Made by a program: the position numbers and the translations under genes. Under the pieces are notes generated by a model, which was not told the DNA's origin, did no database searches, and worked only from the letters and a program-made list of their open reading frames with translations. A stretch of 16,562 nucleotides of DNA from a virus: the UHGV virus genome UHGV-1596829; one strand, given 5' to 3'. Positions 306-1,200 of this stretch are shown here, one piece after another. The stretch's first letter is position 1. The number at the start of each line of letters is the position of its first letter.

Positions 306-333
306 AAAAATTTTCCTTTCCATAGGAAAGGAG
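306..333 (-). terminator. Putative intrinsic terminator-like hairpin (9-bp stem, 3-nt loop, followed on the minus strand by AAUUUUUA)
   Basis: Inverted repeat ttcctttcc-ata-ggaaaggag at 313-333; on the minus-strand transcript the hairpin is followed by a short U-tract. It sits about 45 nt upstream of the signal-peptide gene start and could insulate it from prophage read-through. Confidence 0.25.
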
Positions 334-345
334 CGTAACCACAAT

Positions 346-365
346 GAGTTATCATACGCTAACTC
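346..365. repeat. Dyad-symmetric 20-bp motif GAGTTA-N8-TAACTC, copy 1
   Basis: gagtta tcatacgc taactc; the half-sites are exact reverse complements. A second copy lies 132 bp downstream at 478-497. Confidence 0.6.
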
Positions 366-477
366 ATAAGTAGGTAATAAAATACCATAAAGATTTTGTG
401 TTGTCAAATCCTGATATTTACAGGAAAGAATGGCCGTATCACATAAACAACACAAAAAGTACACAAAATCCTGCAAC

Positions 478-497
478 GAGTTAGAATAAGCTAACTC
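478..497. repeat. Dyad-symmetric 20-bp motif GAGTTA-N8-TAACTC, copy 2
   Basis: gagtta gaataagc taactc; same half-sites and same 8-nt spacing as copy 1, and flanking bases are also similar (caaYGAGTTA...TAACTCM). A related GCTAACT also occurs at about 291-297. Confidence 0.6.
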
Positions 498-603
498 CAA
501 ACATGTTTTTTAATAAAAGAAAAATTTTTTGTATGTGCGATACATATTGTATACAGCGGCAGGTGGTGTTTTATTTTCAGGACATTTGGACAGGAGGAAT
601 ATA

Positions 604-1200
604 TTATATAGGTATATATAGAGTGTACAAATTTCCTGTAAAAATTTTTTGAAGAATAAATGATATCGCAACAATAGCTATCGCAGATATGATTGACCTA
701 TATTTATGACTTATCATCATCGCAATACAAAAAACAAGATAGAAATAAATTTCGTAACTTAAAGTCCATGCAGTTATTATTAGACTATAACCATAAAATG
801 GGGCATTTTCAGTTGGCCGCAACTGAAGAAACAATAGTGATTTTTTGATATTATCAATATTAAACCAAAGAGGAACTGACGACTTATCCATCATGAAGAA
901 GTGAGTAGCAACAAGGCTAAAAAGGAAAAAGCTTAATAAATAAACAGGGTATAACCTAAAGAATCGCTTAATGATAAATTTGGCGCATACAAAACTCTCT
1001 TTTTTTTCTGTTGCTAACGCGATGATAAAACCGCTGATCACAAAGAATATATCAACACCTATTGCTCCATTGTAAAACAGAAGATCACCAAGATTTTTCT
1101 GCACGTAAACATCGTTCAGGTACACATTCATATGTCCAAGAACTACCAGCATTGCAGCTATCCCACGCAGTGCCTGTATTGATTGTATTTTGTACGCCAT
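604..1200 (-). CDS. Acyltransferase family 3 membrane protein (O-antigen/LPS acyl- or acetyltransferase type), probably 3'-truncated
   Basis: 198-aa translation starts MAYKIQSIQALRGIAAMLVVLGH...FFVISGF...RFFRLYPVYLL, the typical N-terminal signature of Acyltransferase_3 proteins, with several predicted TM helices. Family members are usually about 330-400 aa, and no continuation is seen in any frame below 604. The segment is very AT-rich (about 30% GC) and sits directly after the tailspike, the same position as oac in Sf6. Confidence 0.6.
   Translation of the reverse strand: MAYKIQSIQALRGIAAMLVVLGHMNVYLNDVYVQKNLGDLLFYNGAIGVDIFFVISGFIIALATEKKESFVCAKFIIKRFFRLYPVYLLSFFLFSLVATHFFMMDKSSVPLWFNIDNIKKSLLFLQLRPTENAPFYGYSLIITAWTLSYEIYFYLVFCIAMMISHKYRSIISAIAIVAISFILQKIFTGNLYTLYIPI

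Follow-up and report, generated by a model that had tools for sequence, protein, structure and literature searches.

Three copies of a short dyad motif lie near the left end of the window, i.e., the whole stretch of 16,562 nucleotides of the virus genome UHGV-1596829 that was analysed. Judged from the sequence, these dyads are cis-regulatory sites of the chromosome of a member of the Clostridia (Agathobaculum butyriciproducens and relatives), and not of the prophage that occupies the remaining part of the window. It is rather likely that the three dyads are operators of a putative dimeric regulator, which would control a gene for a surface protein with SLH domains.

Source of the DNA and the chimeric joint

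Positions 1-653 of the window are 100% identical, base for base, to an independent contig (L003) of Agathobaculum, a genus of gut Clostridia. In Agathobaculum this segment is the intergenic region between the SLH surface-protein gene and the rRNA operon. When the paired-dyad pattern was searched in 185,579 species, each represented by one genome, a single match was obtained, and this was in Agathobaculum butyriciproducens DSM 100391. A megablast comparison of positions 1-1300 with 5,426 complete E. coli genomes revealed that only 624-1300 matched, with 97.9-99.9% identity, and this part contains the acyltransferase and tailspike genes of P22-like prophages. The identity to the E. coli prophage begins at position 629, in the middle of the acyltransferase gene, and the remaining window is collinear with P22-like phages, e.g., CUS-3, Sf6, and Sf101. 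For positions 1-653 no match was found in the 5,426 complete E. coli genomes, and for positions 1-700 none was found in 50,697 phage genomes at blastn sensitivity.

The two parts are connected by an exact 25-mer, AAATTTCCTGTAAAAATTTTTTGAA, at positions 629-653. In a three-way alignment, the identity to the Agathobaculum parent runs to 653 and the identity to the E. coli parent runs from 629. The 25-mer occurs both in the rRNA-promoter region of Agathobaculum and in the acyltransferase gene of the E. coli prophage; the loci with this sequence are E. coli L001 and seven loci of Agathobaculum. Past the joint the two parents diverge: L003 runs into a TTGACA-17-TATACT promoter and the rRNA leader, and in L001 the remainder of the acyltransferase gene follows. 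In the window, the acyltransferase ORF is truncated to 198 aa (604-1200, minus strand) and covers profile positions 2-172 of the 326 positions of Pfam Acyl_transf_3. Only 629-1200 are derived from the prophage, and the last codons and the stop codon come from Agathobaculum DNA. The full-length protein has 367 aa in E. coli JKHS016, of which the window holds the first half only; in E. coli the gene runs about 500 bp further and is followed by gtr genes.

The window is, with high probability, a chimeric misassembled contig in which an E. coli prophage was joined to Agathobaculum DNA at the 25-mer, and the chimera would have arisen because both genomes happen to share this sequence of 25 bp. A short exact repeat common to two abundant gut genomes is a classic cause of de Bruijn-graph chimeras. 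Alternatively, the joint could be a real biological junction, formed by recombination between Agathobaculum DNA and an E. coli prophage, in either direction, via the 25-bp microhomology. The join is located exactly at the shared 25-mer, which could in principle fit illegitimate or short-homology recombination, but each side is 99.9-100% identical to its own separate native context. In addition, the join truncates a prophage gene and sets a Firmicute promoter region and a gene fragment into it, and the junction is absent from all six E. coli genomes that contain the acyltransferase gene and from all of the about 80 Agathobaculum loci. A biological origin of the junction is thus very unlikely. 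Irrespective of whether it is a misassembly or a real junction, the source organism and the joint imply that neither a prophage end nor an attachment site is present here. The sole reason why the dyad triplet was seen beside an E. coli prophage is that a chimeric contig fused the two.

The earlier note had placed the dyads between the end of the prophage and the flanking gene, and had interpreted them as possible arm-type sites of the integrase, or as Xis or IHF sites, within the P-arm of the attR of a P22-like prophage, or else as an operator of prophage cargo. This reading is based on positional intuition only, namely that the dyads are found beyond the last recognisable prophage genes, which encode the tailspike and an O-antigen acyltransferase. 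The location turned out to be a different one: at 629 the prophage sequence is interrupted within a gene, and the part to the left belongs to another organism. The assignment to attR has to be abandoned, because the segment is absent from the E. coli and phage sets and identical to Agathobaculum, i.e., the adjoining DNA is not that of an enterobacterial host, and the prophage is cut within the acyltransferase gene. Furthermore, conserved copies of the dyads precede the SLH genes of loci that do not contain a prophage. The segment is ordinary chromosomal DNA unrelated to a prophage boundary, an outcome that the earlier note itself had named as speaking against its proposal, and there is practically no chance that the dyads serve the integration of the prophage or the regulation of its cargo. 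The remark that no tRNA-like fragment is visible was borne out by a tRNA/tmRNA search of the whole window, which detected none. Only one side of the prophage is contained in the window. About 630 bp at the left of the window are thus foreign to the prophage, and inferences about the integration site, cargo regulation or host range that are drawn from them would be wrong.

The surface-protein gene and its upstream module

The minus strand of positions 1-262 contains the beginning (87 codons) of the gene for a large surface protein with SLH domains. The start codon is a TTG at 262-260, and the ribosome-binding site AAGGAGG is found at 277-271. According to the translation, the protein starts with a signal peptide, which is followed by the first SLH-like repeat. 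The assignment to the SLH proteins was made with the intact ORF in relatives, since the 109-aa P0001 had no match in Pfam. In 55 loci the reading frame is open for at least 752 aa, and the ORF of L019 matched Pfam SLH with E = 4e-19. The relatives of the window ORF are 95-100% identical and come from human-gut assemblies. Agathobaculum is a prevalent and abundant butyrate producer of the human gut, and to our knowledge there are almost no experimental genetics for it.

The set of loci comprised 80 further loci from metagenomes and several that were retrieved via protein look-ups. They fall into four lineages, which were distinguished by the protein identity to the window: the window-like lineage (94-100%), the lineage of L005, L006, and L068 (about 80%), the lineage of L070-L087 (about 79-80%), and L007 (66%). 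The neighbour genes vary by lineage. They include the rRNA operon, which in GCA_011075405.1 has the order 16S-tRNA-tRNA-23S and is divergent to the SLH gene at a distance of about 800 bp, as well as GtrA/DegT genes, an ECF sigma/anti-sigma pair, a second SLH gene, a divergent gene for a secreted protein, or an ORF of 396 aa. No regulator gene was found that is consistently adjacent to the SLH gene or common to the lineages.

A motif search revealed exact copies of GAGTTA-N8-TAACTC at 346-365 (GAGTTATCATACGCTAACTC) and at 478-497 (GAGTTAGAATAAGCTAACTC), which are 132 bp apart from start to start, in agreement with the earlier note. Also with one mismatch permitted, the motif is found only at these two places in the 16.5-kb window. 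The chance expectation based on 200 shuffles is 0.04, and two or more matches occurred in one of the 200 shuffles. The repeat finder detected the pair as a direct repeat of 24 nt (342-365 versus 474-497, 83%) and also as an inverted repeat. A partial GCTAACT at about 291 had been taken as a hint at a further half-site; it is in fact part of a full third core dyad, GTTAGACTGGGCTAAC, at 281-296, which has the form GTTAG-N6-CTAAC and was assigned to repeat family D3 by the repeat finder. With at most one mismatch, this core has three matches in the window, all of them inside 281-495. The expectation is 0.28, and three matches were seen in none of the 200 shuffles. The three dyads lie within 215 bp, their centre-to-centre distances are 67 and 132 bp, and no further copy is present in the window.

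In the following, the dyads are described in the sense of the SLH gene, i.e., on the minus strand, and are called sites A, B, and C. Site A, the distal dyad (478-497), is an exact match to the motif and has the sequence GAGTTAGC-TTATT-CTAACTC; about 115 bp separate its centre from the predicted transcription start downstream. In 75 related loci a copy occupies the corresponding position, with a variable spacer (TTATT, TTCCTC, TATAT, GTAAT). Site B, the promoter-proximal dyad (346-365), has the sequence GAGTTAGC-GTATG-ATAACTC, and in the window strain its arms extend to ATGAGTTA/TAACTCAT. It begins about 13 nt past the predicted -10 element and, counted from the predicted start of the transcript, covers about +8 to +27. 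The third dyad, site C (281-296), has the sequence GTTAGC-CCAGT-CTAAC. It ends 3 nt before the ribosome-binding site and is found 34-42 nt ahead of the start codon in 80 loci. The dyads have a length of 18-20 bp and the core AGTTAGC-N4/5-nTAACT, in which GTTA and TAAC are invariant. All three sites have one polarity, i.e., the perfect AGTTAGC half is always upstream on the sense strand. The spacing is 131-132 bp between sites A and B and 66-67 bp between sites B and C.

A sigma-70-type promoter of the SLH gene is predicted at 379-407 (minus strand), with the -35 element TTGACA at 407-402, a spacer of 17 nt, and a TG-extended -10 element TATTTT at 384-379. It is the best promoter-like match in positions 1-1300 (10/12 plus TG), and its -35 element is invariant (6/6) in all four lineages. 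A separate SLH promoter, TGGAAA-16-TATAGT at 322-295, was considered and rejected, because its -10 element is not conserved in the other lineages. The ECF sigma neighbour in one lineage had also raised the reading of the repeats as ECF-sigma promoters, which was discarded on account of the unsuitable spacing and of the position of site C directly beside the ribosome-binding site. Between sites B and C, the predicted leader contains a hairpin that resembles a terminator and might act as an attenuator (306-332, minus strand; terminator scan and RNA fold). Its sequence is TCCTTTCC-TAT-GGAAAGGA (332-314), followed by AAATTTTT. The hairpin and the T-run are kept in all lineages, and the stem is one substitution off in L005 and wholly different in L007. 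A further block upstream of the -35 element (436-463, minus strand; gene sense TGTACTTTTTGTGTTGTTTATGTGATAC) is retained in three of the four aligned lineages.

The order of the elements is the same in the four lineages. In gene sense, it starts with an A5T5 tract, followed by site A, the conserved block, the promoter TTGACAA-17-TGnTATTTT, site B, the hairpin with the T-run, site C, AAGGAGG, and the TTG start codon. The distances between the sites and the start codon are fixed within lineages. L007 additionally has a divergent promoter, TTGACA-17-TATGCT, relative to which site A covers about +8 to +24, mirroring the situation of site B.

The half-sites are far better conserved than their surroundings. 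The four-lineage alignment (66-100% protein identity) has 28% invariant columns overall, versus 28 of the 30 half-site positions (GTTAGC plus TAAC) and 2 of the 18 spacer positions. For site B alone, GTTAGC is invariant at 6/6 positions, TAAC at 4/4, and the spacer at 1/6. In a collection of 84 distinct site sequences, GTTA and TAAC are essentially invariant and the spacer varies freely. Of these 84, 34 have a broken innermost G-C pair, and at the position two bases outside the core both sides change with retention of the symmetry. Site C is degenerate in L005, L006, and L068, where the left arm GTTAGC is retained and the right arm is GCAAC. In 272 kb of related loci, GTTA-N8-TAAC was found 238 times at the module positions and only twice elsewhere, and one of these two copies is a variant of site B.

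Candidate operators and alternative explanations

The invariant half-sites are about one helical turn apart and the centre between them is free, and this argues for the footprint of a dimeric DNA-binding protein. The earlier note had recognised this form from the two exact copies, and the dyad symmetry, the invariant half-sites and the free spacer in the related loci agree with it. The only conserved promoter lies downstream of site A, which should thus be absent from the predicted SLH mRNA. Together with the mirrored position of site A in L007, these features favour an action on the DNA, and we propose that the three dyads are operators. The earlier note had also mentioned an operator as an alternative; for the flanking gene this is close to the best explanation, but it does not apply to the prophage cargo, because the segment is not prophage DNA.

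In the proposed mechanism, a putative dimeric helix-turn-helix regulator would bind to all three operators. Binding to site B would block RNA polymerase at initiation or shortly afterwards, at promoter escape. Sites A and C may be auxiliary operators that act via cooperative binding, looping or a roadblock, and the three sites would jointly set the expression of the surface protein. The transcription start, the binding of a protein and the sign of the regulation are likewise predictions in this model. With 10.5 bp in each helical turn, the distance of 131-132 bp between sites A and B amounts to about 12.5 turns, and no obvious looping phase is seen. A symmetric dimer does not require the shared polarity of the three sites. 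Further observations count against the operators: no regulator gene was consistently found beside the SLH gene, sites B and C are both within the predicted 5' UTR, and the palindromes could form moderately stable RNA hairpins.

An unlikely alternative is that the dyads act as hairpins of the transcript, and that an RNA-binding protein might read the shared stem and control the leader terminator. Site B would then be a 5'-proximal stabilising stem-loop, site C a hairpin near the ribosome-binding site that affects translation, and site A a terminator or insulator hairpin against upstream transcription. This is consistent with the predicted 5' UTR, which holds sites B and C on both sides of the conserved terminator-like hairpin, with hairpin energies of -8 and -9.1 kcal/mol (z about -2.6 to -2.8), and with the polarity common to all three sites. 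In the outer stem, two-sided complementary changes occur (31 cells at pair 5-24), the covariation score is higher than in all 500 shuffles, and in the outer pair of site A, in sense orientation, G..T is commoner than A..C. In the L076/L089 lineage, site A follows upstream genes and forms the tip of a perfect palindrome of 16 bp, which is succeeded by a T-rich tract; this arrangement is terminator-like and also counts against an operator. However, the four core pairs are invariant in sequence and never covary, and the loop or spacer is free, a pattern opposite to that usual for RNA and typical of a DNA palindrome that is read by a protein. With the innermost G-C pair broken in 34 of the 84 sites, the stem of many copies is reduced to four pairs, most of them A-U; no fold was predicted for site C in isolation, and site A precedes the conserved promoter. 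Site A faces the divergent rRNA operon in the window lineage and so has no obvious sense transcript there. The dyads of the window have neither a G+C-rich stem nor an adjacent U-run, the terminator scan lists only the hairpin at 314-332, and a search of Rfam with positions 1-1300 at E values up to 1 gave no match. The two modes might also be combined, so that DNA is read at site A and the promoter and sites B and C form RNA hairpins around the attenuator in one dual-use control module, which would be dedicated to the giant SLH proteins of Agathobaculum and its relatives and is not known to have been described, but we judge this as quite improbable.

Sites A and B could also be the inverted repeats of a promoter segment of 112 bp, which a site-specific recombinase flips and thereby switches the surface protein on and off. 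As inverted repeats (I1, arms 346-365 and 478-497) they are 80% complementary and bracket the predicted promoter at 379-407, and cell-surface proteins are a common subject of phase variation. Against this, an orientation probe was applied to 86 loci and matched 69, all of the window lineage, and in 69/69 the promoter points toward the SLH gene; these include L002, which is merely stored in the orientation of the window. Since assemblies represent the majority orientation only, a rare flipped state might escape this count. The promoter has the same orientation in the aligned diverged lineages. The 8-bp spacers TCATACGC and GAATAAGC match at only 4/8 positions in the inverted register and at 5/8 in the direct register, and thus there is no identical crossover core. 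The spacers drift freely among strains, the third copy (site C) is outside of any such segment, and in L004, L005, and L006 the neighbour genes do not include a recombinase gene. With none of the 69 matched loci flipped and no identical crossover core, an invertible promoter is disfavoured and is highly improbable.

Comparison with known control regions and biological meaning

Several copies of one palindromic operator are likewise found at the E. coli lac (O1/O2/O3), gal (OE/OI), and deo control regions. In lac, O1 is at +11 and O3 at -82. Formally, site B at about +17 resembles O1, site A, about 100 bp upstream, resembles O3, and site C, which is downstream and transcribed, resembles O2. In contrast to lac, gal, and deo, the half-site sequence is unrelated, the host belongs to the Clostridia, the target encodes a surface protein, the regulator is putative, and the spacings of 131-132 and 66-67 bp are in no obvious helical phase. 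Operators of HTH dimers with the form 7-N4-7 or 4-N8-4, e.g., those of the Cro/CI proteins of the P22 c2/434 type, PadR-type ATGT-N8-ACAT, and MarR/SlyA TTAGCAAGCTAA, resemble the dyads in their symmetry and length (18-20 bp), in their conserved half-sites, whose centres are separated by about one turn of the helix, and in their variable middle. A possible lead is that TTAGC/GCTAA is also the pentamer of the SlyA consensus. In SlyA, however, 2 bp separate the pentamers, compared with 4-6 here, each of the other families differs in the half-site sequence or the spacing, and the sequence points to no particular family of regulators.

In the cwpV and flgB switches of Clostridioides difficile, which are operated by the recombinase RecV, short inverted repeats also surround a regulatory segment of 100-200 bp; this segment precedes a gene for a cell-wall protein, and the leader includes a terminator. 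They differ from the module described here, for which 0/69 loci are inverted, an identical crossover core is missing, a third copy lies outside, and no recombinase gene is nearby. The arms of attP and attR of P22-like phages (Lederbergvirus) have only one likeness, namely that the dyads adjoin prophage late genes in this contig, but the sequence stems from the chromosome of another phylum and the prophage is cut within a gene. A literature search for the motif string and for the regulation of the S-layer of Agathobaculum found nothing relevant.

The dyads belong to an ordinary kind of element, i.e., a promoter with multiple operator-like sites, but the motif is uncharacterised and the organism is a poorly studied gut anaerobe. 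The comparison of the loci delimits a conserved module, which consists of three copies of AGTTAGC-N4/5-nTAACT, a promoter and a leader terminator, and is located upstream of the gene for a very large SLH-anchored protein. If the dual-use arrangement were true, one factor would couple initiation, termination and translation of a major surface protein of an abundant butyrate producer of the human gut. With the motif, the search for the regulator and its regulon has a concrete starting point.

The leader hairpin and the upstream blocks

The leader of the gene encoding the SLH surface protein contains a terminator-like hairpin, which is located between the dyads B and C on the minus strand (window 306-332) and consists of an 8-bp stem followed by AAATTTTT. 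The hairpin and its T-run were present in all four lineages that were distinguished by SLH protein identity. The stem carried one substitution in L005, a locus of the lineage that also comprises L006 and L068, where the U-run directly follows the stem, and its sequence was wholly different in L007, the most diverged locus. The hairpin may be an attenuator; an antiterminator fold was searched for and none was found.

Upstream of the -35 element a further conserved block was detected (window 436-463, minus strand), which contains spaced TGT repeats of the form TGTACT-N5-TGTTGT-N4-TGTGAT. We take these repeats to be reminiscent of the direct-repeat sites of response regulators of the OmpR/WalR type, and the block may represent a second regulatory input.

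On the rRNA promoter side of the intergenic region a length difference was observed (window 549-559 versus 940-1101 of the Agathobaculum locus L002). Here the window strain is about 150 bp shorter than the type strain and several others, in which the additional sequence is flanked by the short direct repeats GTATACAGCGG and GTGTACAGCGG. The difference is a deletion or insertion polymorphism.

Neighbors and rearrangements of the module

In the lineage of L070-L087, with an SLH protein identity of approximately 80%, the module of three dyads, predicted promoter and leader hairpin is directly preceded by two genes in the same direction (L078 757-1672, with equivalents in L076 and L083). One of them encodes an ECF sigma factor (Pfam Sigma70_r2 and r4_2), the other a small membrane protein, which is possibly an anti-sigma factor. 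Site A in this lineage is located at the apex of a perfect palindrome of 16 bp, which is followed by a T-rich tract.

The gene pair is absent from the fusion loci L088-L091 (e.g., L089 480-1091; proteins P0033-P0037). Here the module is complete, with all three dyads, and together with SLH codons 1-45 it is joined in-frame to the final approximately 56 codons of a sigma factor, i.e., region 4; this arrangement was observed in 11 contigs, which originate from several samples. Downstream of the fusion follow a full-length gene for a sporulation-type sigma factor and the gene for SpoIIID; in one fusion locus a large serine recombinase stands in the place of SpoIIID. The fusion could result from a rearrangement that has become fixed and in which a sigE-like gene was destroyed, or it could be a programmed rearrangement of the skin type.

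Reading frames affected by assembly and by the chimeric joint

In some assemblies frameshifts break the SLH gene into short ORFs of 109-124 aa (L003 520-849; L004 5001-6692), whereas the ORF is open over at least 752 aa in 55 loci. The short SLH "proteins" listed in the database probably stem from errors of assembly or sequencing.

The joint between the two genomes in this contig is an exact 25-mer (window 629-653), which is identical in both parents, i.e., in the acyltransferase gene of the E. coli prophage and in the UP-element-like region of the Agathobaculum rRNA promoter. The truncated O-antigen-type acyltransferase ORF of the prophage (window 604-1200, minus strand) has a length of 198 aa, compared to 367 aa in E. 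coli JKHS016. As read, this ORF is an artefact of the chimera, because its final codons and its stop codon are supplied by foreign DNA.

A divergent gene in the most diverged lineage

In L007 a divergent gene, the product of which starts with MKKKIKALL, is read on the minus strand (L007 1-130) and has its own promoter, TTGACA-17-TATGCT. A copy of the dyad, GTAAGC-AAAC-GCTAAC, lies between this promoter and the ribosome-binding site of the gene, and, therefore, the motif may control both divergent genes in this lineage.
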